Below, piece by piece: positions 7,862 to 32,402 of a stretch of 39,958 bases of DNA. A program made the position numbers and the translations under genes. This DNA is from Armatimonadota bacterium (lineage in GTDB: Bacteria; Armatimonadota; UBA10988), in the NCBI GenBank assembly GCA_016235455.1, contig JACRKZ010000086.1, positions 1 to 39,958 on the forward strand. The letters are read 5' to 3'. The stretch's first letter is position 1. Every line of letters begins with the position of its first letter. Below the pieces are notes generated by a model, which saw only the letters and a list, made by a program, of their open reading frames with translations, searched no databases and was not told where the DNA came from.

Positions 7862-9577
7862 ATGACCGCCTGGCTGATGCTGCCCCTGCTCCTGCTGGCG
7901 CCGCCCGCGCCGCACCCGTGGTTTCCTCGACCGCCGTTGCCCGACGAGCTGATCATCGTGCCGTTTCAGGGCGATGCGCAGCGCGGCCTGCTGCTGGAGT
8001 CGCTGGCCGGCGTGGCGGCGCGTGCGGCGCTGGACGCCGGGCATGGGCCGCTGGTCTGGGAGTACCACGACCACTCGGACTACCGCGCCCTGCTGACCGC
8101 CTTCGCCGCCGCGCACCCGCTGCAGCGCATACCTCTTGACCTGGAAGCCGCGACCGCCGAACTGGCCCAGCGCGGGATCGTCCGAGGCTACCTGCTGTGC
8201 CGCTATGAGGACAGCAAGCGCCCTTGGCACGAACTGGGCCCGCACGATGAGAGCGTCAACGTGGCCACCTCGCTGGCCGGGCTGATGCGCGGCGTGGTGG
8301 TCACCGAGGCGCTGGAGCCCATCGCCCAGGCCGCGGGGCTGAGGCGCCTGGCCGACTGCCGTCCCATGACCGAGGCGGGCTGCCTGGCAGCGCACGCGGC
8401 CGAGTTCTCGCGGCTCGGTGTAGGCACCGGCGAGCCCCGCGCACGCAACGCTCGCTCGCTGATGATCGCCCAGCGCCTGTTCGTGTGCAGCGGCGTCGGC
8501 GAGGCCTACCGCGCCGCCCTGGTCCGCTGCGCGCCCGACTCGCCGGTGATCGGCTGGGGCCTCGGCCCCGAGGACGGTCAGACGCTGCCGTCATCGCGCC
8601 ACGGCCTGTTCCAGACCGCCACCAACTGGTGCCACAACCTGACTGTGCTGGCCAGCGAACAGCCCGGCCGCGACGTCGATTGGGCTGCGCTGCGGGTGCC
8701 CCCGCCTCCGGCGACCGCACCGCCCGAGCGCGGCCGGCATTATGTCTGCCTGACGCTGACCGACGGCGACAACATCCAGTGGATGATGGGCAACTTCGTG
8801 GCTGGGTCGGAGGGCCACAACTACTACGGGCATCCGCGGCGCGGCGCCATCCCGTTCACCTGGGGCGTGCCGGCCTCGGGCCTGCTGGCGCTGTCGCCGC
8901 GCACGCTGGCCGGCATCTTCACCACGGCCACGCCCAACGACGACTTCGTGCTGTACAACGGCGGCGGCTACTTCTACCCCGACGTCTACGGCGCCGACCG
9001 GCCCGACGACCGCTGCCTGAGGCTGCAGGCCCAACGCCTGCGCGCGGTGGTCGAACGGACCGGCACCAGAGTGCTCGCCTTCAACTTCCAGAAGTGGAAC
9101 AGCGCCGAAGCCCTTCGCGCCTGCGCGGTGTTCGCGCGAGAGATACCCTCTTTGCGCGGCATCCTGGCCTTCCAGTACTATCCCTACTCAGGCGGCGCCG
9201 GCGCGGTCGAGTGGGTCGACGGCGCCGCGGGCGACCACTGCCCGGTCATCAGCTGCCGCTACACCGTCTGGGCCGGCACCGGCCGGCCCGCCGATACCTC
9301 ACCGTCGCGCGTGGCCGCCCAGCTCAATCGCCTGCCCCGCGTTGGCGACAAGGCCACCGCCGACAACTTCTCGTTCGTGCTGGTCCACGCCTGGTCGCGC
9401 TTCCGCCAGCCGCGCGCCGGCGTGGTCGAAGACACCGAGGACGACGTGCCGCAAGACGCCGACGCCGGCTCGAGCCGCGGCTACGACCCCGCGCGCTGGA
9501 CCGCCGAGCGCCTCGATCCCCAAGTCGTTCCGGTCGGCGCGGCCCGCTTCGTCGAACTCATCCGCGCCACGCTATGA
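7862..9577 (+). CDS. Secreted GxGYxYP-domain putative glycoside hydrolase
   Basis: Signal-like N-terminus; SVNVATSLAG, TDGDNIQW, P.TWG and GGGYFYP motifs; RBS GAGGA. Confidence 0.82.
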   Translation: MTAWLMLPLLLLAPPAPHPWFPRPPLPDELIIVPFQGDAQRGLLLESLAGVAARAALDAGHGPLVWEYHDHSDYRALLTAFAAAHPLQRIPLDLEAATAELAQRGIVRGYLLCRYEDSKRPWHELGPHDESVNVATSLAGLMRGVVVTEALEPIAQAAGLRRLADCRPMTEAGCLAAHAAEFSRLGVGTGEPRARNARSLMIAQRLFVCSGVGEAYRAALVRCAPDSPVIGWGLGPEDGQTLPSSRHGLFQTATNWCHNLTVLASEQPGRDVDWAALRVPPPPATAPPERGRHYVCLTLTDGDNIQWMMGNFVAGSEGHNYYGHPRRGAIPFTWGVPASGLLALSPRTLAGIFTTATPNDDFVLYNGGGYFYPDVYGADRPDDRCLRLQAQRLRAVVERTGTRVLAFNFQKWNSAEALRACAVFAREIPSLRGILAFQYYPYSGGAGAVEWVDGAAGDHCPVISCRYTVWAGTGRPADTSPSRVAAQLNRLPRVGDKATADNFSFVLVHAWSRFRQPRAGVVEDTEDDVPQDADAGSSRGYDPARWTAERLDPQVVPVGAARFVELIRATL

Positions 9578-9703
9578 GCCGCTCTGGCTACAAATGTGGC
9601 CTCTCCGCCCCGTATCGCCCGCGCGCATTCGAATGCACATGTCGCCGAAAGTTTACGTGGATGTGCCTTACCGTTTGGGACTCTGGGCCTACATTGTTCC
9701 CGA

Positions 9704-9816
9704 GGCCGAAGGCGTAAGCCTGTGGGGTCGTCGATCCGCTGGTTGGATCGTGTCCGCTCGGAAGCGGGCCAAGCCCCCGAGAGTGAGTCTGGGAGACACC
9801 TCTCGCTGCTTCGGCC
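9704..9816 (+). ncRNA. Candidate multibranch structured RNA (riboswitch-like leader)
   Basis: Closing helix GGCCGAAG 9704-9711 / CTTCGGCC 9809-9816 enclosing stems 9724-9728/9773-9777, 9732-9737/9745-9750, 9752-9758/9763-9769, 9778-9783/9800-9805; TACATT at 9690-9695 just upstream. Confidence 0.5.
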
Positions 9817-9831
9817 AGACGGGAGAGAGAA

Positions 9832-10068
9832 ATGGACTGGCAGATGTTCCCCGGCCAGACAGTGCAAGACGCGCAGAGCTACCCCGAACCGCACATCGCG
9901 GAGTTGGCGGCGCTCTCGCTCGTCACATATCCGCGCCCCCGCAGGCGCTTGGCGGCCAAGCTGAGCCACCTGGTGGGCAGCAGTCTGGCGACCTTTACAC
10001 TGGCCCCGCGGTCGTGTTGGCTGCAGGTCCCGGACTTCCTGATGCGGCACGAGTCGGACCGCAAGTGA
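9832..10068 (+). CDS. Hypothetical small protein (78 aa)
   Basis: Purine-rich RBS GGGAGAGAGAA directly before ATG; lies between a putative promoter/leader and a strong hairpin; no family recognised. Confidence 0.5.
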   Translation: MDWQMFPGQTVQDAQSYPEPHIAELAALSLVTYPRPRRRLAAKLSHLVGSSLATFTLAPRSCWLQVPDFLMRHESDRK

Positions 10069-10092
10069 CGACTCGCCGCTGATCGGACAGCA

Positions 10093-10153
10093 CGGAGCCC
10101 TCTTCCGCGCGCATCAGACTCCGCCGCCGGAGTCGCGCCAGAAGGGGGCTCCG
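10093..10153. terminator. Long hairpin between convergent genes, probable bidirectional terminator
   Basis: CGGAGCCCTCTTC...GAAGGGGGCTCCG outer stem with inner GACTCCG/CGGAGTC stem; only a short T run follows. Confidence 0.55.
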
Positions 10154-10168
10154 CACTTTGGTCGACCG

Positions 10169-12286
10169 CTACTCTTCCCACGCCCGCGAGCGCGGCAGCC
10201 ACACCGTGAAAGTCGAGCCGCGGCCCAGCGCGCTCTCCACCTCCAGCCGGCCGCCATGGGCTTCGACCAGGTGCTTGGTGAGGTAGAGCCCCAGGCCGGT
10301 GCCGCCGATGCGGCGGCTGTGGGCGTCGCGCAGCCGACCGTACTGGGTGAACAGCGAGGGCAGATCCTGGCTGGCGATGCCGTAGCCGTGGTCGGCCACC
10401 CGCAGCGCCACTTCCGCCTCGCCCGGCTCGATGACCAGTTGCGTCGTGGAGCGCGGCGGCGAATACTTGAAGGCGTTGTTGAGCAGGTTGGTGAGAATCT
10501 GCTCGAGCTTGTCGCTGTCGGCGTCGATGCGGATCTCGGTCCCGGGCGCGACCAGCTCATAGGTGTGGTCGGGCGAGTAGACCTCTTGCGCGTCGATGAC
10601 CCGCCGGGCCAAGGCCACCAGATCCACGCGCTGCCATTGCACTTCCAGCGCGCGGCCGGAATCGATGCGGCTGATGCACAGCAGGTCGGCCACCATGCGG
10701 CGCAGGCGGTCGCACTCGTGGTCGATGATGCCGATGAACCCGCGGTGGTCGTCGTGCTGCAGCCGGGAATCGGCCAGCAGCGCGCTGGCGAAGCCCTTGA
10801 TGCTGGTCAACGGCGTGCGCAGTTCGTGGCTGACGAACGACACCAGTTCGGTGCGCAGCTTGGCCAGTTCGGTCAACTCGGTGATGTCGGTGCAGACCAC
10901 CACGCGGCCGACGCGTTCGCCGCTGGGCCCGTCGACGGTGGCGCTGTGCACGCGCATGACCCGGGGCTCGGGCTCCTCCAGGCGCGTCTCGCGACCTTCG
11001 TCCTCGGTGTCGCCCATGGCCAGCACGGCTGCCAGCGTCGGGTTGCGTACGTCGAGCAGCGCCTTGCCAACCAGCGATTCTCGGCCCAACCCGAACATGC
11101 TCACGGCCGCGTCGTTGACCATGAGCAGGTTGTTGTCCGCGTCGATCATGATCACCGCGTCGGCCATGTGCTCGATCATGGCCGTCAGGCGCGCCTTCTC
11201 GTCGGACAGCCGGCGGTTGGTCTTCTGCAGCGCGGCGTCGGCGCTCTTCACCCGACTGGCCAGCCGCCGGTAGAGCTGGGCGCGCTCGAGCGCGACGGCG
11301 GCCTGACTGGCCAGCGCCTCCACCAGACTGGTGCGCGCGTCCAGATCCTCGACCTCGGGCAGATTGACCAGTTCGAGCGCGCCGATCACGCCGGCCGGCG
11401 TCTTGAGCGGCACGGCCATCAGCGACCTGGTGCGGAACCCGGTGGCCAGGTCCACGTCCTGGAAGAAGCGTTCGTCGGCGTAGGCGTCGCGCACGAACAC
11501 CGTCTCACCGTCCTCGATGCAGGCGCCGACCAGCCCCTTGCCGCGCTCGATCTTGATGTCCAGCAGTTGCGCCTTGGCCGCGCCGACGGCCTGAAAGAAC
11601 CGCAGCACGCCCGTGTCGGCATCGGCCAGCACCAGCGAGCCGCCGATCGCCTGGGTGACGTCCATGGCCGACTGGAGGATGGTGCCCACCAGCTCGTCCA
11701 GGTCGTGGACGCGGTTGACCGTCCGGTCAATGTCGATCAGCGTGGTCAGCTCGTCGTTGCGCCGGCGCAGTCCGGTGACCAGCCGCGCGTGAGCCACAAG
11801 GACCGAGACCTGCGCGGCGATGTCGGCGATGAGTACCTCGTCGGCCGGGCTGTAGGGCTGGTCATCGACACGGTTCAGCACCTCGATGGCCCCATGAACG
11901 ACGCCGTCGACGCTGAACGGCGCACACAGCACCGAGCGCGTGTAGAACCCGGTGGCCTCATCGGCCCGCATGCAGAAGCGTTCATCAGCTCGCGCCGAGG
12001 TCACGTTGGCGATGCGCTGGTGCTCACACACCCAGCCGGCAATGCCCTCGCCGCGGTCCAGGCGTACGCGATTGAGCAGGGCGCTCGAGTCATCGGGCGC
12101 TGTGTAAAAGACGAGTTCGTCGGTGGCGGAGTCGACCAGCACCAGCGAGGCCGCGGCTGACCGGAAGGCCCGACAGAGGTGCGCCGACAGGGCCACGGCC
12201 AGCGAGGCCACGTCGGTCGCTTGAGCCAGCAGCGGCGTCAGGTCGGCCAGTGCGCTGGCGCGTGGGTCCACCGGAGGCTCCATCAT
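10169..12286 (-). CDS. Cytoplasmic sensor histidine kinase (GAF-GAF-coiled coil-PAS-HisKA-HATPase)
   Basis: Two GAF repeats (GEGIAGWV/GKGLVG, D.RF...D.ATGF.TRS, GAIEVLN/GALELVN); SHELRTPLTSI, NLLNNAFKYS, DHGYGI, GGTGLGL; no TM segment; RBS GGAG before ATG12286. Confidence 0.93.
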   Translation of the reverse strand: MMEPPVDPRASALADLTPLLAQATDVASLAVALSAHLCRAFRSAAASLVLVDSATDELVFYTAPDDSSALLNRVRLDRGEGIAGWVCEHQRIANVTSARADERFCMRADEATGFYTRSVLCAPFSVDGVVHGAIEVLNRVDDQPYSPADEVLIADIAAQVSVLVAHARLVTGLRRRNDELTTLIDIDRTVNRVHDLDELVGTILQSAMDVTQAIGGSLVLADADTGVLRFFQAVGAAKAQLLDIKIERGKGLVGACIEDGETVFVRDAYADERFFQDVDLATGFRTRSLMAVPLKTPAGVIGALELVNLPEVEDLDARTSLVEALASQAAVALERAQLYRRLASRVKSADAALQKTNRRLSDEKARLTAMIEHMADAVIMIDADNNLLMVNDAAVSMFGLGRESLVGKALLDVRNPTLAAVLAMGDTEDEGRETRLEEPEPRVMRVHSATVDGPSGERVGRVVVCTDITELTELAKLRTELVSFVSHELRTPLTSIKGFASALLADSRLQHDDHRGFIGIIDHECDRLRRMVADLLCISRIDSGRALEVQWQRVDLVALARRVIDAQEVYSPDHTYELVAPGTEIRIDADSDKLEQILTNLLNNAFKYSPPRSTTQLVIEPGEAEVALRVADHGYGIASQDLPSLFTQYGRLRDAHSRRIGGTGLGLYLTKHLVEAHGGRLEVESALGRGSTFTVWLPRSRAWEE

Positions 12287-12295
12287 CAGCACTCC

Positions 12296-14827
12296 CTAAG
12301 CATCGGTCAGCAGCCGTCGGGCGCTGATTGGCGTCGGCGGCCGGCATTCCTCCCACAGCGCCGAGGTCACCGTGACCGGCGCCCGTCGGCGGAAGACCCG
12401 GCGACCTACGCGGATCTCGGCCTCCAGCGTGAGCTCGCGCTGGTCGATGCCGGGCGGCAAGTTCAGCCGGAAGGGCACCGTCAGCCGTTTGGGCTCGCCC
12501 AGATCGAGCGTGGCGGACACGGGCTTGGCGCCCGGCAACTCCAAGCGCACCTGCGCCAGCTCGGCCAATGCGCCGCCGGTGAGCGTACAGACCACCGCCG
12601 CCTCCACCAGCCGGCCCGCCGGCACGGGGTCGGGCACGGCCAGGCCGCCCACCAACACCGTGGCGCGTTCGCCCACCGGCACTGGGCTGAGTACCGCGCA
12701 AGGCACCACCATCTCGTCGAGGCTGAGCCCGCCATCGGCCATGACCGCCTCGCGCGCCGCGGGAGCCAGCCGGTCAGCTCCCATTGCACACCACAGCCGG
12801 CGTCCGCCGACGATCATCTCCAGCACATCGTCGCGCTCGTTCACCTGGCCGTCGGCCGCCACACAGCGCGGCGCGAGCACCTGGCCCGACAGCGATAGCC
12901 CGGCCGCCTCGCGGCAGCGCACCGCGCCGCTGGTGCCGAGCAACACGATGACCTCGGCGCGGCGCGAGCGCGCCAGCGCCACACCAGCCTCGGCCAGCAG
13001 GTCCAACCGGCGACGCCAGCGTTCCACAGGCACGCCCGTGGCCGGCCCGGCCAGCAGGTTGACCGCCACCAGCCGCAGTTGGCCGCCCGCGGCGGCGTGC
13101 GCCACGCAGCCTTCCTCGGCCAGCCCGGCCAGCGCGCGCGGCACGGCGCAGGTGCGCAGAGCCAGCTCGGGCCGCGCCGTGCGCAGCAGCTTGGGCCACG
13201 ACTCGCCCTCGCTCAGGCCAGCGGCCACCGCACGGCGCAACGACTCCTCGGCCGCGGCGGGTAGACTTGCCGCCACCGCGCGCACGTGGCAGTCGCTGAC
13301 CTCGGCCAGCGGACCCGCCAGGCAGTCGCCCCAGGCCCGCCAGGGAAGGCCGGCCACCAACAACACCGTCACGCGCGGCTGGTCGGGCTCGGCCAGCAAG
13401 GGCTTGACCAGGTAGTCCCAGGTGCCGTCGACCTGGTGCTCGCCATCGAGGCCGCTGAGCGCCAGCCACGCCTCGCGGCAGCCGCCCTCGAAGCCCGCCA
13501 GCGCCTCGCGCGCCAACTCCACGCGGTGGTAGAGCGAGCGCAGCACGGCCTTGTGCCGGCCGGCATCGGGGCGCGGCCGCCAACCCGGCTCGGCCACGCT
13601 GTTGCGCGTCAGTGCTTGCGCGGCCGCGACCGCATCCTGCCCGAGCGTGTCGATCTCGGTGTCCACCATCCAGGCCAGTGCTCGCGCCTGCCGCGTGGCC
13701 AGACCCTCCTCGGGCCGCGGCGCGGTCAGTCGATGGCGGCCGCGATCGAGTCGCAACAGGGCACGCAGCAGTCGTGCATGGGCGCGCACGGCGCGCGACT
13801 CGCTCAGTTCGTCGGCGCGTTGGTCCAGGCTGTCGAGATCGCATTCCAGGCGCGGATCATCGGCCAGGCGATCTGTCGCGCAGGCTTCCAGCAGAACACG
13901 TAACGCCATGAGTGCCAGCGGCCCGCAGCGCAACTCGCGCCTGACCACCAGCGCGGCCACCTCGATCTCCTCGATGCGCAGCGCGCGGCACAGCGCGGCG
14001 CGTAGCGGACCAGTGAGGGCCGCCTCGGCCAAGGCCTGCTGGCTGGCGGCCAGCTTGCGGTTGGCGCTGGCCAGGCGGTAGGCGACGCGCGCCACCGCCG
14101 TGGCGTCGACGCCGGCCAGCCGCGCCGCGCCCGGATAGATGCGCGGCAGCTCCTCGCCCACGTTGGCCACATGCGGTCCGAGCAGCGCCACCAGCCAGGT
14201 GAGGCGCGCCGCGGGCTGCGGGTCGCTCAGGTCTACCCAGCACAAAGGCGCCGGCTGTCGGCTGAGCCAGTCGCGCAGGCGGACCGCCAATGGGCAACGC
14301 CGCGACTGCAGCCCGGCCAGCAGCGGCGCGCGCTCGTACAACGCTTGCCAGGCATCGGCCGGCTCGACGGTCTGCGCTGGGTCGAAGCCCAGCACCGCGC
14401 GCACGACCATCTCCTCTAGCTCGTCGGGGGTCGGCGTGCGCAGTCGGCGCCGAGCGCGCGTCAGCCCGCGGAAGCAGGCGTTGACCAGGGCCGGCTCGCG
14501 GTCCAACCAGGCCGGCCAGTCGTCATGCCCGCTGCCCAGGGCCAGCAGCCCGCGCGGCGTCACATCCAGCACCAGCCCGTCCAACGACGCGACGGCTTCA
14601 AGATCGGTGGTGAACACCTCGGCCCGGCGGCGGACCACCAGGTGGCGCGCGGCACGGTCGCGCCCTCGCCAGTCGAGGCGGAAGCGCAGGTTCGATTCGG
14701 CGAACCACACGGTCCAGCCCGGTGGGTCGAGCTGGTCGAGCAGTCCGTGCGAATCGCCCAGGATGACCAGCCGGGCGTCGGGCGCCGAGTCGGCCAGCCA
14801 GCGCGCGATGACCTCACTCGGTCCCAT
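12296..14827 (-). CDS. PglZ-like (alkaline phosphatase superfamily) protein with degenerate active site and C-terminal Ig-like domain
   Basis: N-terminal LVILGDSHGLL as in BREX PglZ; ordered blocks VTVLLVAGLPW..W, ASLP....SLR, IVLLGTSG, PR, DGGLSLDEMVVP align to PglZ vvDG, LPT.T..SR, iTSDHG, HGG.S..Em.vP. Confidence 0.65.
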   Translation of the reverse strand: MGPSEVIARWLADSAPDARLVILGDSHGLLDQLDPPGWTVWFAESNLRFRLDWRGRDRAARHLVVRRRAEVFTTDLEAVASLDGLVLDVTPRGLLALGSGHDDWPAWLDREPALVNACFRGLTRARRRLRTPTPDELEEMVVRAVLGFDPAQTVEPADAWQALYERAPLLAGLQSRRCPLAVRLRDWLSRQPAPLCWVDLSDPQPAARLTWLVALLGPHVANVGEELPRIYPGAARLAGVDATAVARVAYRLASANRKLAASQQALAEAALTGPLRAALCRALRIEEIEVAALVVRRELRCGPLALMALRVLLEACATDRLADDPRLECDLDSLDQRADELSESRAVRAHARLLRALLRLDRGRHRLTAPRPEEGLATRQARALAWMVDTEIDTLGQDAVAAAQALTRNSVAEPGWRPRPDAGRHKAVLRSLYHRVELAREALAGFEGGCREAWLALSGLDGEHQVDGTWDYLVKPLLAEPDQPRVTVLLVAGLPWRAWGDCLAGPLAEVSDCHVRAVAASLPAAAEESLRRAVAAGLSEGESWPKLLRTARPELALRTCAVPRALAGLAEEGCVAHAAAGGQLRLVAVNLLAGPATGVPVERWRRRLDLLAEAGVALARSRRAEVIVLLGTSGAVRCREAAGLSLSGQVLAPRCVAADGQVNERDDVLEMIVGGRRLWCAMGADRLAPAAREAVMADGGLSLDEMVVPCAVLSPVPVGERATVLVGGLAVPDPVPAGRLVEAAVVCTLTGGALAELAQVRLELPGAKPVSATLDLGEPKRLTVPFRLNLPPGIDQRELTLEAEIRVGRRVFRRRAPVTVTSALWEECRPPTPISARRLLTDA

Positions 14828-15341
14828 CGCGCCACTCCCCGACCGCCGCGCCGGCCATGCAGGCCGGCGGCGTCAATCCCAGATAGAGTTTGGGCCGACC
14901 CAGGCGCACCCGCCCGGGCATGACCCATACCAGCCGCCGCCGACCGCTGGCCAGGCGACCCAGGTCCAGTTGCTCGGCCAAGGCCAGTTCGGGCTCATGC
15001 ACCACGAGGTCGTCGGCCCCGGCGAAATCGGCGAGCAGGCGGTCGTAGGCCGCGGCCAGCGCCTGCCGTGTCTCGGCGCGCGCGGTCTCCAAGCGCAGCT
15101 TGCCGCCCGGCTCGGCGCGGCGCCGCGCGGCCTCGTGCTCGCGCTCCGCCAAGCCCTCCACGTCGGGCAGACGAGCCAGCAACTCGGTGGTCAAGGCGAG
15201 GCGCGGACGGTCGGCCAGAGCCGTGTCCAGAGCGCTGGGCAACGCAGCAGACATCGCCGCGCGTTCCGGCGCGGTGAGTAGCAGGACCTGACCCGTCTCT
15301 GCCCCCAACAGGGCTTCGAGCGCAGCACTTTCGCCAGCCAA
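14814..15341 (-). CDS. BrxF/BrxB-like small inactive P-loop-fold protein
   Basis: VLLLTAP (eroded Walker A position), LALTTELLARLP, LVVHEPEL, RRLVWVMPG....G..KLY resemble BREX BrxF/BrxB patterns; TTG15341 has GGAGG RBS; 14-nt overlap with the PglZ-like gene. Confidence 0.5.
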   Translation of the reverse strand: MAGESAALEALLGAETGQVLLLTAPERAAMSAALPSALDTALADRPRLALTTELLARLPDVEGLAEREHEAARRRAEPGGKLRLETARAETRQALAAAYDRLLADFAGADDLVVHEPELALAEQLDLGRLASGRRRLVWVMPGRVRLGRPKLYLGLTPPACMAGAAVGEWRDGTE

Positions 15342-15631
15342 CCCGACCTCCGGCTCCAAGCGAGGGTATGCCCCCAACAACCCAAAGCCACACCGGTAAG
15401 GCGGGACGGCGCTGGGCGGACAGGGACTCTAGCATTCGCCGACGATAGCGCCAAGCCTGCCGACCTCCTGGCACCACCTCACGAGTCCAGACCGGTGGAC
15501 GACTCGGCCCAGGCCGGCCCGGCGCGCGTCGTCAGTGGGCCGGCAGGCCAGAGCAAACAGGCGCTAACTCGGCCCGGCGGACCGGCCGCCGGACTCCTGC
15601 CCCAATGGAGGCTGGTCGCCGACTCGTCCGG

Positions 15632-17008
15632 TCACTGTCCGTGGGCAGCGGGCGCCCCTGGGGCAGGCGGCGACTGCGTCGAGGTCGAGCCGTCGAGCAT
15701 GGCCTGGTACCAGAATCCCGCGCGCCTGACCTGGCCCCACGCACAGTGATGCCGGGTCGGACCGGACGCCTTGTCGGCCACGAGGGGCGCGCCCTCGCTG
15801 CCCTCGATCTCGGCGAAGGCCAGCACCTTGCGCAGATTGACCATGCCCGCGAGCCGCTTGCCCGCGAGGGCTGGCGAGTAAGCGTAAGAGATGAGCGCGG
15901 CATTGGCCGCCGCCGGACAGACAAAGGGCGAGCCTCCGTCGCGCGGCTTGGCCACCAGCGGACGCAGCGCCTCCAGCCAGCCGTCCGCGGGCGGCAGCTT
16001 GCCATCGTGGCCGGCGGCATACTCCTTGAGGGCTTTGGCCAGATTCCTCATGCGCTCGGAGCAGGCATCGCTCTGCTCCTGGTCGCGCGTGGCTCGCTCG
16101 AAGGTCCAATCGTCGGGCAACACCATCGCTTCGCCGGTGGCCGTGGCGTAGATGATCGTCTTGCCGTGGCGGCCGCGCAAGGCGTCTAGCCGGTTCGGCG
16201 TGAAGGTCATGTTGGCGGCATCGCCCTTGACGCAGGCCAAGGTCACCGTCCGGCGCTGGTGCTCCCAGTCGTTGTTCAGCTCGGTGCCGCCCAACTCGGC
16301 ATTGAAGGCGTAGCTGAACTCCTCGTCGTCATGGTCGGGGCAGACCATGGCCTTGGGGTCCTCCAGGTAGGGCAGCAGTTCGTCGTACCAGGTGGCCGCC
16401 GCCGGCAGCTTGTCGCGATGCTCCTCGGCATAGCTGCGCAGCGCCTGGGCCAGTTCGCGCAGCTTGCTCATGCACTGCCAGGGCTGGGCATCCTCGGGCT
16501 CGGCCAAGGCGCCCTCGGGCACCGCGTCCATCATCTTGGCGATGCTCATGATCACGCTCTTGCCGTCGGGCGCGGTGGCCTGCAGGCTGGCCGCCAGATC
16601 CACCAGCCAGGTGCCGTCGGCCTGCTTGGCCAGGACCAGCTTGGGCTGCAAGGTGACGGTCTTGGTCAGATCGTAGGTGACCTTGTCCGCGCCAGCCGTC
16701 GCAGGTGCAGGTACCGCCATCAGCGTCGACTTGGGCATGGGGAACAGCGCCAGCTCGGCCAGACCGACCTCGCTGAGCAGCTGGCCCTCCGGCCCGCGCG
16801 TCATCTGGCCGACAAAGAGCGTGAGGAACGTGTCCAGGTTCTTCTCGCGCGCGCTGAACTCACGTACAGCCACCAGATCGGAGCGCTGCACGGCGTTGAG
16901 ATAAGCTTGCGCTACCGCCTCGGGCTTGGTGCGGTCCACCGCAGGCGCCTGGGCCCACGCCGCCACGCCTGCCAGCAGCCCGATCGCCATCCATCGCCAC
17001 CGCCCCAT
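15632..17008 (-). CDS. Secreted protein with NTF2-like N-domain and two tandem DUF1559-like domains
   Basis: Signal peptide MGRWRWMAIGLLAGVAAWA; twice C...LR.LA.AL..YA..H..KLP.A..W...L.P....F/MVCP...SYA; final RH...LDG; RBS GGAG. Confidence 0.7.
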   Translation of the reverse strand: MGRWRWMAIGLLAGVAAWAQAPAVDRTKPEAVAQAYLNAVQRSDLVAVREFSAREKNLDTFLTLFVGQMTRGPEGQLLSEVGLAELALFPMPKSTLMAVPAPATAGADKVTYDLTKTVTLQPKLVLAKQADGTWLVDLAASLQATAPDGKSVIMSIAKMMDAVPEGALAEPEDAQPWQCMSKLRELAQALRSYAEEHRDKLPAAATWYDELLPYLEDPKAMVCPDHDDEEFSYAFNAELGGTELNNDWEHQRRTVTLACVKGDAANMTFTPNRLDALRGRHGKTIIYATATGEAMVLPDDWTFERATRDQEQSDACSERMRNLAKALKEYAAGHDGKLPPADGWLEALRPLVAKPRDGGSPFVCPAAANAALISYAYSPALAGKRLAGMVNLRKVLAFAEIEGSEGAPLVADKASGPTRHHCAWGQVRRAGFWYQAMLDGSTSTQSPPAPGAPAAHGQ

Positions 17009-17266
17009 GGTCGTCTCCATCACATACTGCTCAACGCGTGAGCAACCAGAATCGTTCGCCGAGGTGGCGACGGCTCCTCTGCGCGATGGCAGGCCCGCCA
17101 TGTAACGCCCATCTGTATGGCACCACGATGGGTATCGATACATACTACGATACAAGCCTTCAGACGGACCTTCGACAGACCCAATGTAACATCAACATGA
17201 ACGCCGCACGGGCGAGAGGCCCCAGCTAGCGGGGCCGACGGAGCGGAGCAAGGTAGGCAAATCGCT

Positions 17267-19216
17267 ATGCTGAGGAAACAGTCGTTGGGCAAGAAACTCG
17301 TCGCGAGCTTCGGCTCGCTGCTGGTGCTGGCGCTGGTGCTGGGGGCCGTGGCCTGGATGGGTATCAGCTACCTGTCGGGCGCGCACGCCCGATCTGCCAA
17401 CGCGGCGCAGTGCCGCTTGCTGCTGGGAGAGTGCGTGACCGCCCATCGAGCCTTTGCGGACGCGGGTTTTGAGAAGACGGATCCCGAGGGCAAGGGCTGG
17501 GACGTTGTCTTCGCCGACCTGGCTGACAAGGCGACCAAGCAGATGCAGAGGCTGGCCGGCTTCGCGCGCGGCACCGAACAGACGGGCCTGGTGAAGCAGT
17601 CGGCCGAGAAAGTGGCTGCCTACCAAGCGGGTTTTGAGAAGCTGGTTACGGCGCGCCGGACGCTGGAGGAGAAGCGGTCGGCCTGGAGCGCGGCAGGCAA
17701 AGCTGGCAGCGAGACGGTCGCCAAGGTGAACACCTGGCTCGACGGTGGCATGGCGCAGGCCGACTCCGGCTCGGTGGCCCGCTGGGCCAAGTACGCCCAG
17801 GTCCTCAACAGCCAGGTCATGGCGGGATTCTACCTGTGCCGCACCAACGGCATCTACCTGATTCTGACCCGCTCGGACTCCTACTGGCAGACCTACCAAG
17901 AGGTGTCGGCGAAGGCGACGCAGGGCGCGGCCGACTGGGCCGCCGTGGCGCCAACGGACACGGGGCTGGCCGCTCAAGCGACGGCCATGAAGGAAGCCAT
18001 TGCCGCTCACCGGGCCGGCGGCGAGGCGTTCTACGCGGCGGTGGTTGCGCACCGCGCCGCCGAGAAGATCGTCGCTGACGCCAATGCCGACGCCGTGGCC
18101 ACGGTGACCAAACTGCAGCAAGTGTTCGCGCAGGCCGCGGAGCGGCTGGTCCGCCTGGCCCGACTGCTGTTCCTGGTGGTGACGGCGGTCATCGTCGTGC
18201 TGGGCCTCTGGCTGTCGCGCACCATGACCCTCGACATCGCCGGGCGCTTGCGCGCGGCGGTGTCGCACCTGTCGGAGGGTGCGGAGCATGTGGCCAGTGC
18301 TTCTTCGCACATCAGCACGGCCAGTTCCCAGATCGCCTCGGGTGCCAGTGAACAGGCGTCGAGCCTGGAAGAGAGCACCGCGTCCTTGGTCGAGATGGCT
18401 TCGATGACCCAGCAGACGGCGGATCAGACGAAGGCCACCAACAGCATCGCCCGCCAGGCCGAGGAAGCCGCCGCGCGCGGCTCGGAGGCCATGGGCCGCA
18501 TGAACGACGCCATCGCGGAGATCAAGCAGTCCAGCGACGAGACGGCCAAGATCCTGAGGACCATCGAAGAGATAGCGTTCCAGACGAACCTGTTGGCGCT
18601 CAACGCGGCGGTTGAGGCAGCGCGCGCGGGTGACGCCGGCAAGGGCTTCGCCGTGGTGGCCGAGGAGGTGCGCAACCTGGCCCAACGCAGCGCCGAGGCC
18701 GCCAAGAACACCGGCGACCTGATCGGCCGTTCGCAGCACAACGCCGACCGCGGCGTGGCGGTGGCCAGCGAAGTGGCCCAGATGCTCTCGGCCATCGAGG
18801 CCGGCGCGCGCCAGACAGCTCAGCTCCTGGAGCAGACCGTGATGGCCACCGACGAGCAGTCCAAGGGCATCGACCAGATCAGCTCGGCCGTCACCTCGAT
18901 GGACACGGTCACCCAGGCCTTCGCCGCCAGCGCCGAAGAGGCTACTTCGGCCGCCACCGAGCTGTCCGACCAGGCCGGGCAGTTGCGCGATCTGGTGCGC
19001 GACCTGAACGAGATGGTGGAGGGCGCCGGTCAGACGGCGCCGGCTCTGGCAGCGCCGGCCCACCCGCGGCCCGCGGTGGCAGCGCGTCCAGCGGCAGCCG
19101 CCAAATCAGTGTTGAGCGCGGGCGCAGCCCATCCGCCGCGCCTCAACCCGCCGCGCAACACCGGACCCGCGCCCGATGTGCGGATGCTCGACAGTGACGA
19201 GTTCGGCGACTTCTAG
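17267..19216 (+). CDS. Methyl-accepting chemotaxis protein
   Basis: Two TM helices around a large periplasmic domain; [40 protein letters not shown]; C-terminal EFGDF pentapeptide after a Pro/Ala linker. Confidence 0.96.
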
Positions 19217-19298: not shown

Positions 19299-21890
19299 TC
19301 AGCGGCCCAACATGCGCCGGACTCGTTCGACGAGCACCGCGGGCGAGAAGGGCTTCTCGATGAGCTCGACGCCGTCGTCGAGAACGCCGTGGTGGCCGAG
19401 CGCGTCGGCTGTGTAGCCCGACATGAACAGCACGGGCAGGCCGGGACGCATGGCGGTCACGGTGGCCGCCACCTCGGCGCCGCTGGCCTTGGGAAGCACC
19501 ACATCACTGAGCAGCAAGTCGATGGGGCCCTCGTGGTCGGTCACGATGGCTCGAGCTTCGTCGATGTCGCGCGCCAACAGCACCACGAACCCTGATCGCG
19601 CCAGCGAGTTGAGCACCACGCCGCAGGCCAGGTCGTCATCCTCCACCACCAGCACCGTGCCCTCACTGCTCGGCGCCGCGGCGGACGGCTCGGGCCGCTC
19701 GGGCTCCGACGCCGGCGGGTCCACTGGGTCGGCGCCGGGCAGCCAGATGTGGAAGGCCGTGCCGTGACCCACCTCGGACTCCACGCGGATCGTACCGCCG
19801 CTCTGAGCCACGATGCCGTCGACCGTGGACAGGCCCAACCCTGTGCCACGGCCCAGCTCCTTGGTGGTGAAGAACGGTTCGAAGATGTGGTCGACCACCT
19901 CGGCCGGCATGCCGGAACCGGAGTCACTGACCACCAGGCAAGCGCCGGGCATGGGCTCGCCGTCTGGCCCAACCCTGTTGAGCGCGGCGGTGGCCAGGCG
20001 CAGCCGGCCGCTCTGCGGCATGGCATCGCGTGCGTTGACCGCCAGGTTCAGCAGCACCTGCTCCATCTGGCCGCGATCGATGGTGACGGGCGGCACATCG
20101 CGGCCCAACTCGCAGACCAGCTCGATGTGCTCGCCGATGAGCCGGCGCAGCATGCGCTCCATGCCGGAGACGATCGTGTTCAGATCCCACACACGCGGCG
20201 ACAGCATCTGCTTGCGGCTGAAGGCAAGCAGTTGGTGCGTCAGCCCACCGGCCCGCTCAGCGGCGCGCAGCACCTCGCCGAGCTCCTCGGCATGGGGGCC
20301 CGGTTCGGCCAGCATCATCTCCGTGTAGCCGAGGATGGTGGTGAGCAGGTTGTTGAAGTCGTGGGCCACGCCGCCGGCGAGTTGGCCGATGGCCTCCATC
20401 TTGGTCGACTGTCTCAGGCGCTCCTGCAGTTCGCGCTCGTCAGTCACGTCGCGACCCAGGCTGGAGGTGCCCACCACGACGCCATCGGCGTCCTTGAGCA
20501 GCGTGCGGTCCCAGACGAAACAGCGCCGCCGGCCGTCCCGGGTGACCACGTTGTATTCCAGGTGCGCTTCGCCCTCACCCGCACGCACCATCGCCTCGAA
20601 CTGCGCGCGCAGTTCGCCGTCGGGGTCGTCGGCCATGTCGGCGAACCAATCGGCGCCGATGAGCTGATCGGGCGCCGCGCCGATGGCCTGGCCGAAGGCC
20701 GCGTTGCAGTAGAGCAGGCGACCGCCCGCGTCGAGCATCGCGGCGCAGAGCCGCGTGGAGTCGAGCATGGAGGCCATGCGTCGCCGCGACTCGACCAGAT
20801 CGGCCTCAGCCTGCCGGCGCGCATCGGTGTCGCGCACCACGGCGAGCAGCCGGTCTTGACCGTCCAGCAGGCCCCGACGCAAAGACACCTCGGCCCAGAA
20901 TAGCGAGCCATCTTGCCGGCGACAGCGCCACTCGAAGACCTGCCGCTGCCCGGCCATGGCGCGTGCGCAATGGGCGAGCGCAGTGGCGCGGTCGAAGGGC
21001 GGGTCGCCGCGACTGAAGTCGACCACGGTGCGCCCCAGGCATTGCTCGCGCGTCGTGCCGAACATCAGGCAGGCCGCGGGGTTGGCGTCGATGATCAGAC
21101 CCGTCTCGGCGTCGTGGACCAGCACACCGTCGTCCAGCGAGTCGAACATCGTGCGGAAGCGGTCTTCGCTGGCCTCCACGTCGGCCATCGAGCGCGCCAG
21201 ACTGGCGGTCATGTGGTTGAAGCTGACCGCCAACGCGGCCAGTTCGTCGTCCATCACTTCGGGCGGCACGCGGGTGGCCAGGTCGCCGTCAGCCACGGCC
21301 TCGGCGGCCTGGGCAAAGATGTGTAGCGGCGCGCCGATGGCGGCCCAGATGAGGAATCCGCCGGCCAGCGCCACCAGCAGCAGGCTGGCACCCAGCTTGG
21401 ACAGCGCTGATCTGGCCAGCTTGGCCGTGGGCGCGTCGAGCTCGCCTTGCGCCGAGAAGACCACAACCACCAGGTCGGTGTCGTCACGCGGCACTCGCGC
21501 GTAGCCATAGATGCGGCCGTTGGCGTCTTCACCGGTGCCCCGCGGCTGGCGGTGTATGGCGCGAAGCGTCTCCGCGGAGAACCAGTGCCGGGCCGGCTGG
21601 CCATCCCAGCTGGCGTCCTGGCCATAGGCGACCGCGTCGTTCGCACCGACCACCAGCGCCTGGTGCAGCGGCCGCCGCTGCCGCAGCCAGCGTTGGCCCT
21701 CGGCTGGCGCTTCAGCCCAGCGCTGCGCCATCGCGCCCGCCAGCGCCTCATGCCGTTGGCCGACGATACCGCGAATGGCGCCGCGCACGTCGACGCCAAT
21801 GACCATGGAAACCACGGCCAGCGGCACCGCGGACAGCAGCAGGAACCACACGGTCAACCGCAGCGCCAGCGAACGACCGGTCCAGTTCAT
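19299..21890 (-). CDS. Hybrid sensor histidine kinase (TM-sensor-TM-HAMP-PAS-PAS-HisKA-HATPase-REC)
   Basis: GDL..RV....DEL..LA.SFN.M (HAMP); GGVAHDFNNLLT, NLAVNARDAMP, FEPFFTTKE.GRGTGLGL; REC VLVVEDD, LLSDVVLP, FMSGY, KPF; RBS GAGGGGG before ATG21890. Confidence 0.95.
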   Translation of the reverse strand: MNWTGRSLALRLTVWFLLLSAVPLAVVSMVIGVDVRGAIRGIVGQRHEALAGAMAQRWAEAPAEGQRWLRQRRPLHQALVVGANDAVAYGQDASWDGQPARHWFSAETLRAIHRQPRGTGEDANGRIYGYARVPRDDTDLVVVVFSAQGELDAPTAKLARSALSKLGASLLLVALAGGFLIWAAIGAPLHIFAQAAEAVADGDLATRVPPEVMDDELAALAVSFNHMTASLARSMADVEASEDRFRTMFDSLDDGVLVHDAETGLIIDANPAACLMFGTTREQCLGRTVVDFSRGDPPFDRATALAHCARAMAGQRQVFEWRCRRQDGSLFWAEVSLRRGLLDGQDRLLAVVRDTDARRQAEADLVESRRRMASMLDSTRLCAAMLDAGGRLLYCNAAFGQAIGAAPDQLIGADWFADMADDPDGELRAQFEAMVRAGEGEAHLEYNVVTRDGRRRCFVWDRTLLKDADGVVVGTSSLGRDVTDERELQERLRQSTKMEAIGQLAGGVAHDFNNLLTTILGYTEMMLAEPGPHAEELGEVLRAAERAGGLTHQLLAFSRKQMLSPRVWDLNTIVSGMERMLRRLIGEHIELVCELGRDVPPVTIDRGQMEQVLLNLAVNARDAMPQSGRLRLATAALNRVGPDGEPMPGACLVVSDSGSGMPAEVVDHIFEPFFTTKELGRGTGLGLSTVDGIVAQSGGTIRVESEVGHGTAFHIWLPGADPVDPPASEPERPEPSAAAPSSEGTVLVVEDDDLACGVVLNSLARSGFVVLLARDIDEARAIVTDHEGPIDLLLSDVVLPKASGAEVAATVTAMRPGLPVLFMSGYTADALGHHGVLDDGVELIEKPFSPAVLVERVRRMLGR

Positions 21891-22024
21891 CCAGACCCCC
21901 TCGAAGCGTGTCATGCAGGCGCGGTGAGAAGCACCGCCGGCTGCCTGCCTCGATAAGCCGGACTAGTCTGCCACAATCCGCTGTCGACGTGGCGATCGTC
22001 GCCTCGGGAAACGTTACACCCGTG

Positions 22025-26971: not shown

Positions 26972-29191
26972 GTGTCGATGTGGTTGGCCTGGTTGATGTT
27001 GGCGCTGAGCGCGCGGCCCGGCTTCGTGCCCGTCGTGGGCCGGGCAGAGGGTTTGTCGGTGGTCATCGTCAAGACCGCTGGCCAGCCCGAGGAGCGTCAT
27101 GGCGACCTCCTGCCCATGACCGCGCGGCGCACCGACCAGGCCGGTGAGTTGGAGCTGCGTCACAGCGCCGCGCTGGCACCCATCACCCGCGCCGGCTTCC
27201 TCAACGTGACCCAATGGCTCCGCGGGCCTGGCACGGCACTGATACCCGACCTGAGCGCCGCACTGGGTCGCTGCGGCGTGGTGGTCATGCCCGATACCGA
27301 GCCCGCACCCATGGACGGCAGCAGCGCCAGCGTAGCCATGACCGTGGCCGCGACGTCGGCCCTGCTGGACCTGCCGGTCCTGCAGAATGTGGCCTTCACC
27401 GGCGCGGTCGCGCCGGACGGCTCGGTGACCGTCGTGGGTGGCGTGCCCGACAAGCTGCGCGGCGCGCTGCGCGGTCGGCTGGACACCCTGGTGGCCCCGC
27501 GGCCCAACGCCGAGCAGGCGCTGGCCACGCTGAGCATCGAGGACCTGGGCCGGATCCGCATTGTCGCGGTCAACCACCTGCGCGAGGCGCTGCCCGAAGG
27601 GTTTGGGCCGGTCGGGCCGTGGGGCAAGGGTTGGCAGGAGGCCCAGGACGAGTTGGCCCACGGCATCGCCCATCTGGCCGAGGACCACGTCGCCGACGCC
27701 GCCGCGGCGCTGAACGCCTATCGCGCGTTGGCCCCGCGCGACCTGACCGCGGCGCTGTGGCTCGACGCCGCCGCGGGCCGGCACATCGCCGCGCCGGTGC
27801 GCGCCGCCGCCCTGCGCTTCGCCTGTCGTTACGACGACGCCATCGCCGTCTGCCGCGAGCCCCAGGTCACCCTGGCGGCCAGCGCCGCGCTGGCCGCCAT
27901 CGCCGACCAGTGCCGACGCGATCGGGCGGCCGACCAGCGCGACCTGCTGCTGGCCGAGAGCCACGCCGCGCTGGCCGCGGGCGACCTGGCCAAGGCGCGG
28001 GCCCGGCTCGACGAAGCGGCCAAGACGCTCGCCCTGGAGCCGGGCGGCGCCGACGCCGTGGCCTGGCAGACCGCCGAGCTGCGGCTGGCCGAGAGCCGCA
28101 TGGCGGTCAAGGCCCGGCCCGAAGATGTGGCCGCCTGGCGAGAGCTGGCCGCACAGGCCCAGACCCGCCGGCAATGGCGCGAGGCCGCCGAAGCCTGGCG
28201 ACGCGTGGGCGAACTGGCCGACGCCGAGCGCCGGGCTGCCTACCGGCAGGCGCTCTGCTGGTTCCGCGTGGGCGAGTGGGATCAGGCCCGCCTGGTTCTC
28301 CTGGGCAACCTGCTCAACTGGCCGGCGGACACCGCGGGCCGCGACCTGCTGACCGCCATGGGCACCGACGTCGACGCGCCGCGGCCGGTGGCCATCGTGC
28401 CGGCCAGGCCGGCCGGCACCGTGATGCTGCAGGGCGGTTGCGACGAGGCCGGCGTGACCACCTGGCTGACCCTCGACGAGCGCGATCTGACCCGCGGCCA
28501 GGGCCGGCTCGCCGCGAGCTGGGACACCACCGCTTCGGCCAGTGGGCCGCACCTGCTCAGCGCGGTCGCCTGCGACCGTGCCGGCAACTGGGGCCTGGCC
28601 CAGCGCGTGGTCGAGGTGAGCAACGGTGCCACGCGGCCGACCGTGTTCATCGAAGCAGCGCCCCGCGCTGCGCCGCCCATGGCCGTGCATGTGCTCATCG
28701 GCGGTGAGGTCCGGCTGCGCCATGGCGACACGCTGGTGCTGCATCCGGACCGCCTCGTGGCACCGCTGCTCAAGCGCGCCCAACGACCGGCGGGCGACCT
28801 GCGCGTGGCCGCGACCTGGGGCGAACAGCGCGCCCTGCTGGCCAGCGGGCCGGTGCGGCTGGAGCCGGCAGACACCGCGCGCGAGGTCGGCCTGCACGGC
28901 CAGTTCGCCAATGGCACGGCGCTGGCGCCCGTCAGCCTGCGACTGCGCTGGACCGAGGAGTTGCCCGGCCAGCTTGTGTCCCATCCCGAGGCCACGCGCG
29001 TGCGGCTCGAGGTGCGTCCGCCACGCGGCTTCCGGCCCGTGCTCGCGGCGCTGGTGGTGGATGGCGTGCCCGGCCCCTGGCAGCTGCCCAGCGCGCTGAG
29101 CGTGCCCCGCGGCGCCCGCGAGGTGTCGGCCGTGTTGCTCGATGCCGACCAGGTCGCCTGCCAGACCACGACGTTGGACGTGGCGACGTAA
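26972..29191 (+). CDS. Secreted protein with Lon-type (S16) protease domain, TPR-like helices and Ig-like domains
   Basis: Signal-like N-terminus; DGSSASVA (catalytic Ser), AFTGAV..DG.V..VGGVPDK (catalytic Lys); WDT.....GPH.L.AVA.D.AGN Ig-like motif; no AAA+ motifs. Confidence 0.78.
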   Translation: MSMWLAWLMLALSARPGFVPVVGRAEGLSVVIVKTAGQPEERHGDLLPMTARRTDQAGELELRHSAALAPITRAGFLNVTQWLRGPGTALIPDLSAALGRCGVVVMPDTEPAPMDGSSASVAMTVAATSALLDLPVLQNVAFTGAVAPDGSVTVVGGVPDKLRGALRGRLDTLVAPRPNAEQALATLSIEDLGRIRIVAVNHLREALPEGFGPVGPWGKGWQEAQDELAHGIAHLAEDHVADAAAALNAYRALAPRDLTAALWLDAAAGRHIAAPVRAAALRFACRYDDAIAVCREPQVTLAASAALAAIADQCRRDRAADQRDLLLAESHAALAAGDLAKARARLDEAAKTLALEPGGADAVAWQTAELRLAESRMAVKARPEDVAAWRELAAQAQTRRQWREAAEAWRRVGELADAERRAAYRQALCWFRVGEWDQARLVLLGNLLNWPADTAGRDLLTAMGTDVDAPRPVAIVPARPAGTVMLQGGCDEAGVTTWLTLDERDLTRGQGRLAASWDTTASASGPHLLSAVACDRAGNWGLAQRVVEVSNGATRPTVFIEAAPRAAPPMAVHVLIGGEVRLRHGDTLVLHPDRLVAPLLKRAQRPAGDLRVAATWGEQRALLASGPVRLEPADTAREVGLHGQFANGTALAPVSLRLRWTEELPGQLVSHPEATRVRLEVRPPRGFRPVLAALVVDGVPGPWQLPSALSVPRGAREVSAVLLDADQVACQTTTLDVAT

Positions 29192-32355: not shown

Positions 32356-32402
32356 GGCGATCCTCCGGGACGGATAGCCATCGTGATTCCTCGCGCGCGC
32401 GG

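Follow-up and report, generated by a model that had tools for sequence, protein, structure and literature searches.

The 39,958-nt stretch of DNA analysed here (contig JACRKZ010000086.1 of assembly GCA_016235455.1, from an Armatimonadota bacterium; hereafter, the window) carries three genes in tandem, which encode a small BrxF/BrxB-like protein, an 843-aa homologue of PglZ, the protein known from bacteriophage exclusion (BREX) systems, and a histidine kinase. The first two genes were shown to descend from a BREX system resembling type 3, and the reading that we favour, with a probability of about 0.6, is that their products form a BREX-derived, non-catalytic complex which regulates or feeds the kinase. 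The statements on the identity of the proteins are much firmer than this figure, while the functional step stands at roughly even odds.

The 843-aa protein is a full-length homologue of BREX PglZ. Specifically, when the profile of its clade was aligned by hhalign with a set of seven sequences, the match ran end to end over 805 columns with a probability of 100% (E 5e-41). Six of the seven carry the Pfam PglZ family, PF08665, above its cut-off, and the seventh, an open reading frame (ORF) of locus L017, lay outside the Pfam scan. In addition, an AlphaFold2 model of the protein (predicted local distance difference test score, pLDDT, 88.3; predicted template modelling score, pTM, 0.78) was compared with solved structures by Foldseek, and the best matches were the BREX PglZ chains 9zn5_B (E 3.1e-14) and 9nv3_C (5.7e-11), over about 957-959 columns, followed by PorX (4e-8). 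The initial annotation had called this protein PglZ-like and had suggested a search for structural similarity to PglZ. The similarity is present, both to BREX PglZ and to PorX, and the label is borne out by hhalign, by Foldseek and by phmmer links to Pfam-positive PglZ proteins.

None of this is visible to family libraries. Pfam, PADLOC and NCBIfam returned no family at E<=1 for the 843-aa protein, and no match to PF08665 at gathering score was obtained either for this protein or in the search of the whole genome. The family is also very small, with 10 proteins found in a word-indexed search and 21 representatives at E<=0.001 (14 at E<=1e-30) in an exhaustive search among 1.84 billion. The four weakest of these 21 matches align through the N-terminal 320 residues (phmmer, E 7.5e-10 to 9.3e-5). 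When ten relatives were scanned, the four most distant ones showed the Pfam PglZ family above its gathering score at the equivalent position, and the other six showed no match. The clade profile was also run against the sequences of the PDB, where its single match, to a designed repeat protein (8e55, E 0.015), was regarded as fortuitous.

The model of the protein can be divided into four consecutive parts, whose limits are reported in Table 1. The same order, that is an alpha/beta N-terminus, a helical region, an alkaline-phosphatase-type domain and a C-terminal beta part, has been described for Salmonella PglZ, which ends with a beta-barrel at residues 749-867 (PMC12205998, in the part of the article available). 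Conservation is unevenly distributed along the protein. Among 12 clade members, residues 101-330 are the best conserved part (mean pairwise identity 0.52, with 44 of 230 columns invariant), and the other four segments show values of 0.40-0.44. In the N-terminal domain, four residues (D25, F49, R50 and D75) do not vary among the 20 aligned sequences, which include true PglZ proteins. We also considered this domain as receiver-like, and set the idea aside, as it has no Pfam receiver match and its invariant residues fall in a predicted docking surface.

By comparing the window protein with active PglZ, it appears that the catalytic centre has been dismantled. In the columns that read D, D, T, R, D, H and H in active PglZ, the window protein carries A492, R497, A526, L530, T632, S633 and D698, respectively, and for all seven the canonical residue is missing from every one of the 12 clade members. 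In the Pfam-positive PglZ relatives the canonical residue is found in four of four sequences for the first six columns, and in three of three for the last one, where P0023 has a gap. Accordingly spelled, the motifs FDGMRWD, LPSST..SR, SDHGF and HGGxS of true PglZ read VAGLPWR, LPAAAEESL, GTSGAV and ADGGLS in the window protein. The replacements vary within the clade: the nucleophile column holds A, G or S, the final His column D or A, and overall Ala, Gly, Ser and Leu prevail.

A profile alignment of true PglZ proteins sets the same motifs opposite IDNFRQD, LPTAT, DHG and HGG of PorX. The aligned motifs would include T272 and H500 of PorX, if a five-residue offset in the numbering of the chain is allowed for. 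These two residues correspond to T538 and H741 of Escherichia fergusonii PglZ, in which the T538A substitution abolished both nuclease and phosphodiesterase activity (both statements from the accessible portion of PMC12205998). Because the nucleophile Thr and every metal-binding residue have been lost, the 843-aa protein is most likely neither a phosphodiesterase nor a nuclease and, judging from these alignments, very probably a pseudoenzyme. A second, more distant PglZ clade from metagenomes (P0016, P0017, P0019 and P0020, 840-901 aa) has partly degenerate motifs, with the second Asp kept in three of four members and one His in two of four; it may represent an intermediate stage of inactivation.

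The small protein is more difficult to name. At E<=1, Pfam, PADLOC and NCBIfam gave no family, and a profile search recovered only seven proteins at E<=0.1; none of these carries a Pfam family, so that no transitive sequence link leads to BrxB. A link to BREX emerged from a different direction, with the comparison of the small protein with a 209-aa ORF of locus L016, from another family of the same phylum. This locus encodes a BrxC-like ATPase, a Pfam-positive PglZ and PglXI, and it resembles type 3 BREX. The two proteins match in hhalign with a probability of 93.4% (E 2.5e-7, 130 columns), and a neighbouring ORF of L016, used as a control, scored 0.1%.

The model of the small protein (pLDDT 77) was also submitted to Foldseek. 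Among 350,542 chains, the top two matches, both weak, were 9zll_E (E 0.034, probability 0.82) and 9zll_G (E 0.038, probability 0.66), followed by P-loop NTPases. With 190 and 189 residues, respectively, these two chains of a BrxC-BrxB-PglZ complex are, by their length, presumably BrxB. No GK[ST] Walker A motif could be read in the sequence of the small protein. A protein atlas returned unnamed clusters and a single lead (0.86; 27% of the members carry AAA), and was uninformative. The label BrxF/BrxB-like, given in the initial annotation, stands in part: the profile match to L016 and the predicted docking described below speak for it, the library models do not, and the fold match, below significance, points to the same class. 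Taken with the position of the gene, the profile match and the predicted complex lend the label moderate support.

A potential direct interaction between the two proteins was assayed in silico, by modelling the small protein together with the PglZ-like segment of residues 1-480. The complex reached an interaction prediction score from aligned errors (ipSAE) of 0.78, and the best of three controls 0.00. This mark is attained by 58 of 80 solved complexes and by 2 of 110 mismatched pairs, a calibration that holds only roughly with the custom alignments employed. Between the three runs, contacts agree to at least 93%, and the partner pLDDT is at least 77. On the PglZ-like side, the interface is formed wholly by the N-terminal domain (residues 20, 42-58 and 67-82); it includes the invariant R50 and D75, and F49 lies between the listed stretches 44-48 and 50-51. 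On the other side, it includes E131, L132, E136, P155, G156 and L165 of the small protein, which are invariant as well. In Salmonella BREX, BrxB binds residues 1-96 of PglZ (PMC12205998, in part), and the predicted docking of the small protein on the N-terminal domain of its partner mirrors this arrangement. The score may reflect the likeness to the solved BrxB:PglZ complexes rather than binding by this particular copy.

The linkage of the pair to the kinase was then followed across six loci, namely the window, two Fimbriimonadaceae contigs from metagenome-assembled genomes (L001 and L002), a metagenome contig (L003) and two genomes of the same family (L014 and L015). In all six, the kinase gene lies directly downstream of the PglZ-like gene on the same strand, and a small gene precedes the PglZ-like gene. 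In the five relatives, the small gene was detected by tblastn in four and by the profile in all five, with L014 and L015 left out of the profile build. The orthologues of the other five loci are 52-66% identical to the window proteins for the kinase and 41-50% for the PglZ-like protein. The junctions are equally conserved in six of six loci, with an overlap of 4 or 14 nt between the small gene and the PglZ-like gene and, between the latter and the kinase gene, either a gap of 0-9 nt or an overlap of 4-8 nt. The initial annotation had left open whether the association with the kinase would persist in relatives; it does, with overlapping or near-touching junctions throughout.

Twenty-one genes of the window were tested for orthologues in the other loci. 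The three genes of the triad have them and the other 18 have none; a hybrid kinase included in the test showed generic kinase-domain similarity only. Since only the triad is shared, the three genes represent the conserved unit.

The PglZ-like gene is present, in one copy each, in five of seven genomes of the order, five of six of the family and four of four high-quality ones. In a sample of the phylum, matches to it occur in 8 of 401 genomes, and the three outside the family align only with query positions 16-336. Two of these three are Pfam-positive PglZ proteins in PglXI loci, and the third (genome G250, locus L017) was outside the scan. The scanned loci of the nearest active relatives are L016, with the content given above, and L018, with PglZ and PglXI; a partial ORF flanking L018 gave no match. 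L018, which is BREX-like and from the same phylum, also contains a Ser/Thr protein kinase-HD gene (Table 1), a further instance of PglZ in the company of a kinase. From its distribution, we infer that the triad is a vertically inherited, family-wide chromosomal module and not a mobile defence island.

In the window, the minus strand carries the three ORFs one after another, in the order small gene, PglZ-like gene, kinase gene, in agreement with the tight same-strand coupling first noticed there. The ATG of the PglZ-like gene (14827) overlaps by 14 nt the end of the small gene, whose TGA ends at 14814. Between the TAG of the PglZ-like gene (12298-12296) and the ATG of the kinase (12286) there are 9 bases, GGAGTGCTG, which contain GGAG. 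All three frames have a third-position GC of 0.82-0.90, as real genes of this genome do (genome GC 70%).

As for the start of the small gene, a GGAGG sits 5 nt ahead of the TTG at 15341, which appears a likelier start than the TTG at 15380. The 146-aa form proposed by the gene caller (ATG at 15254) is too short, and conservation extends upstream of it. The next upstream gene, a 507-codon ORF (15632-17155, minus strand), is 250 nt away from the operon; this gap indicates that the three genes form a unit of their own, bounded on the downstream side by a convergent gene of the GxGYxYP family. A scan of positions 9500-15700 with the sigma-70 consensus yielded no promoter-like site. A scan with a terminator consensus yielded one terminator-like site, inside the kinase gene, which is no more than in shuffled sequence.

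The kinase carries two GAF domains, a PAS, a HisKA and a HATPase_c domain, each over its Pfam cut-off (58.8 bits for HisKA and 94.5 bits for HATPase_c). The H-box reads SHELRTPL, with the phospho-acceptor His at residue 489, and the N, G1 and G2 boxes start at 602 (NLLNNA), 634 (DHGYGI) and 664 (GTGLGL), respectively. No convincing membrane segment was detected by a hydrophobic-window scan, in which the top 19-residue window, within the GAF linker, scores only 1.62. The protein was originally described as a soluble GAF-GAF-PAS histidine kinase: the domains are confirmed and the word soluble is reasonable. It is presumably an ordinary-looking cytoplasmic sensor kinase, active as far as its intact boxes indicate.

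The locus is not a BREX system. It was examined for BrxC, for a modification module and for an active PglZ site, and lacks all three. Specifically, no BrxC/PglY ATPase domain was found among the scanned neighbours and no methyltransferase domain among the Pfam-scanned ORFs of the window. PADLOC matched none of ten further window ORFs, and the window contains neither a tRNA gene nor a GC anomaly. The claim that no other BREX gene and no mobile-element signature surrounds the triad was therefore upheld by the neighbour scans, PADLOC, and the tRNA and GC analyses.

The whole genome of the window, which is 93% complete, has no match to PF08665, PF08747, PF04465 (DUF499) or PF10923 (BrxC_BrxD). It has a single partial match to PF19557 (DUF6079), limited to profile positions 169-352, in a 1,483-aa protein encoded on another contig (Table 1). 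With homologues in 151 of the 401 genomes sampled across the phylum, this protein has no specific link to the triad, and it may represent a further BREX-related ATPase with no part in defence. It is surrounded by a fucosidase, a DUF1559 pilin-like gene and CNNM transporters, which do not make up a defence island.

Table 1. Coordinates of the operon, of the parts of the PglZ-like protein and of other features discussed in the text (positions refer to the window unless a genome or locus is given)
Feature	Coordinates	Strand	Basis or remark
Small BrxF/BrxB-like gene	14814..15341	-	TTG start at 15341, about 175 aa
Small gene, alternative start	14814..15380	-	TTG at 15380, 188 aa, form in the ORF list
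843-aa BREX-type PglZ homologue, putative pseudoenzyme	12296..14827	-	ORF; hhalign, AlphaFold2 model, Foldseek
N-terminal alpha/beta domain, residues 1-100	14528..14827	-	predicted small-protein docking site
Helical region, residues 101-480	13388..14527	-	secondary structure of the model
Degenerate alkaline-phosphatase-type PglZ domain, residues 481-715	12683..13387	-	motif alignment
C-terminal beta-sandwich, residues 716-825, then disordered tail	12353..12682	-	all-beta model; pLDDT <50 at 825-843
GAF-GAF-PAS-HisKA-HATPase_c histidine kinase	10169..12286	-	ATG at 12286; Pfam
Kinase, alternative start	10169..12292	-	GTG at 12292, 707 codons
Non-coding gap upstream of operon, presumed promoter region	15381..15631	-	inferred
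Methyl-accepting chemotaxis protein	17267-19216	+	just upstream of operon
HAMP-PAS-PAS hybrid histidine kinase with receiver	19299-21914	-	just upstream of operon
739-aa protein, Lon_C proteolytic domain at 112-207, nothing else recognised	26972-29191	+	
1,070-aa protein adjoining the Lon_C protein, no Pfam or PADLOC match	29248-32460	-	
DUF6079-partial protein, 1,483 aa	G000:C35:32962-37410 (L020:8960-13411)	-	Pfam
Ser/Thr protein kinase-HD fusion between PglZ and PglXI	L018:4353-7010	-	PADLOC mad6, PD-T4-6

The neighbours of the operon are a metallophosphoesterase, the GxGYxYP protein, the 507-aa ORF, a methyl-accepting chemotaxis protein and the hybrid kinase. The 507-aa ORF is of coding type (third-position GC 0.85), has no Pfam match at E<=0.01 and no PADLOC match at E<=0.001, and does not accompany the triad in the other loci. 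The signalling-rich surroundings, with the chemotaxis protein and the hybrid kinase, are a feature of this genome only; in L002 the downstream neighbour is FlhA.

These data are compatible with a model in which the non-catalytic complex would be made together with the soluble kinase, via translational coupling, and would act as an accessory sensor or regulator of it. As to the cue that the complex would bind, a nucleic acid or an oligonucleotide is the most plausible candidate, given that substrates of this kind are used by active PglZ and PorX and that conservation of the protein peaks in its helical region. The cue-bound complex would then alter the autophosphorylation of the kinase, towards a response regulator encoded elsewhere. 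A more specific version, in which the complex is a stripped-down BREX sensing head that recognises a nucleic-acid or (cyclic) oligonucleotide cue without cutting it and informs the kinase directly, is a tentative proposal which we regard as doubtful. The initial annotation had spoken of a domesticated BREX sub-complex serving as an input to two-component signalling. Its BREX ancestry (from hhalign and the L016 and L018 loci) and its linkage to the kinase have stood, and the role as kinase input would follow if the proposed model is correct.

Several observations weigh against a complex that regulates the kinase. A genome of the same genus (G006; 80% complete, 3.4 Mb, half the size of the genome of the window) has neither the PglZ-like gene nor an orthologue of the kinase. 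In a genome of the sister family (G001, 88% complete), a full-length orthologue of the kinase, with 51% identity, is present, and the PglZ-like gene was not found. The orthologue is on a 2,382-bp contig (L033, G001:C526:1-2382) that ends 157 nt upstream of it; within these 157 nt the C-terminus of the PglZ-like protein, a poorly conserved tail, had no match. The kinase may be older than the pair, or the pair may have been lost from its side. The operon encodes no response regulator, nor is one conserved beside the triad. In addition, the 209-aa ORF of L016 matches neither a BrxF nor a BrxB model, so that the name BrxF rests on position, and at E<=0.001 Foldseek gave no match for the small protein, whose fold match is below significance. 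The loss of the canonical residues is read from alignments, and the invariant R607, R654, R686 and E705 stay in the domain. Finally, the ratio of nonsynonymous to synonymous substitution rates (dN/dS) gave no usable evidence of constraint, and a family-wide vertical inheritance does not exclude a role in defence.

That last role is the most obvious alternative. In a signalling-linked anti-phage module, the BrxF/B-PglZ remnant would still sense the invader, a role proposed for the iSTAND and PglZ N-terminal modules of BREX, and trigger a protective programme switched by the kinase, in place of DNA cutting by PglZ. Its BREX ancestry and the predicted BrxB-like docking, which has been kept, are in line with this possibility. 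It has also been proposed that BrxB-type iSTAND modules are the sensors that switch on PglZ, and kinases accompany PglZ elsewhere, as PglW does in type 2 BREX (both in the accessible part of PMC12839542) and the Ser/Thr kinase-HD protein in L018. The triad itself, however, encodes no effector, methyltransferase or BrxC, no defence gene was found among ten further window ORFs, and there is no GC anomaly or nearby tRNA. Defence systems are usually patchy and prone to transfer, whereas the PglZ-like gene is single-copy, is found in five of six genomes of the family and has no close copy in the 396 other genomes of the phylum sample, a vertical pattern. Taken together, the lost catalytic residues and the single-copy, family-wide triad favour domesticated signalling over a defence module, which we consider unlikely. 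The direction of the signal might also be reversed, with the pair as output or client of the kinase, in a PorXY-like manner, controlled by binding or by non-canonical phosphorylation. In PorX, which is among the fold matches, a PglZ domain serves as the output of two-component signalling (PMC9757075, in the part available), and the kinase gene is the last in the gene order. The PglZ-like protein, however, has no receiver domain (none of the Pfam families at E<=1), its N-terminal domain is the predicted docking site of the small protein instead, and with its catalytic residues gone it offers no evident enzymatic output to control; we therefore judge this arrangement improbable.

The remaining two explanations concern the fate of the PglZ domain itself. 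It could still be an enzyme, with a rebuilt active site, whose product or substrate is sensed by the GAF domains of the kinase. GAF domains commonly bind small molecules, and in the degenerate domain 22 of 235 columns are invariant in the clade, the three arginines and the glutamate named above among them. All seven canonical positions are replaced, however, and by residues that differ between clade members, and the T538A substitution by itself is enough to abolish the activity of E. fergusonii PglZ (PMC12205998, in part); a surviving enzyme is very improbable. At the opposite extreme, the pair would be a decaying BREX relic that lies beside an unrelated kinase by chance. The lost catalytic residues would fit, and the dN/dS of the PglZ-like gene, calculated by the method of Nei and Gojobori (NG86), is high, at about 0.6-0.8. 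By the same method, however, the functional kinase gives about 0.36-0.76, and dS plateaus at about 0.54-0.86 with a third-position GC of about 0.9, that is, synonymous sites are saturated and compositionally constrained. For these two reasons the ratios are uninformative. None of the six PglZ-like orthologues has an internal stop, each being a single frame of about 750-840 codons with 41-52% identity. The junction overlaps are kept in all six loci, 62 columns are invariant among 10 clade members, and the fold is predicted confidently. Because of the conserved synteny, the intact frames and the conserved coupling, the relic explanation fails, and we give it hardly any credence.

A regulatory role of the pair would be relevant both to the mechanism of BREX and to the evolution of pseudoenzymes from defence systems. 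The BREX mechanism is still open, notably as to what PglZ and BrxB do beyond catalysis, and catalytic mutants of E. fergusonii PglZ keep much of their defence (PMC12205998, as far as available). The triad is a natural experiment on this point, in which the PglZ scaffold, a BrxB-type partner and the docking surface have been kept across several genera, every catalytic residue and the other BREX genes discarded, and the pair joined to a sensor kinase. Should the pair modulate the kinase, it would follow that the PglZ:BrxB sub-complex has a binding or sensing function that is not enzymatic and can be separated out. If the sensing-head version is true, these would be the first BREX components exapted into two-component signalling, with sensing naturally separated from catalysis. 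The family is very rare and known only from uncultured bacteria, and its function is presumed; as a practical system, it offers three soluble proteins amenable to expression and assay.

In a literature search, no article combining PglZ, histidine kinase and GAF was found, and those listed for PglZ and histidine kinase dealt, by their titles or the start of their abstracts, with PorXY and the type IX secretion system, with BREX or with unrelated surveys. In the main text of PMC12839542, in the part available, the expression 'inactive PglZ' is absent and the sole 'histidine kinase' refers to a Schlafen RNase fusion. This search, which covered no supplementary tables (those of PMC12839542 could contain one), turned up no account of a BREX-type PglZ that is catalytically dead, nor of an operon in which a PglZ-BrxB-type pair accompanies a GAF-PAS histidine kinase.

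By comparing the triad with the PglZ:BrxB sub-complex of type 1 BREX and with PglZ plus BrxF of type 3 (9nv3, 9zn5, 9zll; PMC12205998 and PMC12839542, both in part), a common four-part architecture is evident, and the likeness consists in full-length homology and in a small partner predicted on the N-terminal domain. Unlike in BREX, however, the metal-binding and nucleophile residues are all lost here, the scanned ORFs of the locus include no BrxC, methyltransferase, BrxA, BrxL or helicase gene, and the Pfam and PADLOC models no longer recognise the diverged sequence. In addition, the pair is in an operon with a histidine kinase, and it is family-wide and single-copy rather than patchy. The type-3 'BR' systems and type 2 BREX, with PglW, show that PglZ and its iSTAND partner form a portable module, which other systems have taken up, and that kinases can accompany PglZ. 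In contrast to the triad, they keep an active PglZ (a stand-alone domain in type-3 BR) and carry helicase, ATPase or methyltransferase partners, and their kinases are Ser/Thr/Tyr kinases and not GAF-PAS histidine kinases (all from the accessible portion of PMC12839542).

The other known system to which the triad can be related is PorX/PorY of Bacteroidota (7pv7, 8ted, 8p6f), as both tie a PglZ-fold domain to histidine-kinase signalling. In PorX, the PglZ domain is active, fused to a receiver and placed at the output of the pathway. The window protein, in contrast, shows no Response_reg match in Pfam and is catalytically dead by alignment; it has the long N- and C-terminal parts of BREX-type PglZ and a BrxB-like partner, and its gene lies upstream of that of the kinase. 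As it lacks a receiver domain, the locus is not a PorX-type regulator. If the pair modulates the kinase, defence parts would have been re-used for signalling, and the direction would be the reverse of that in PorX, whose active PglZ domain serves as output.

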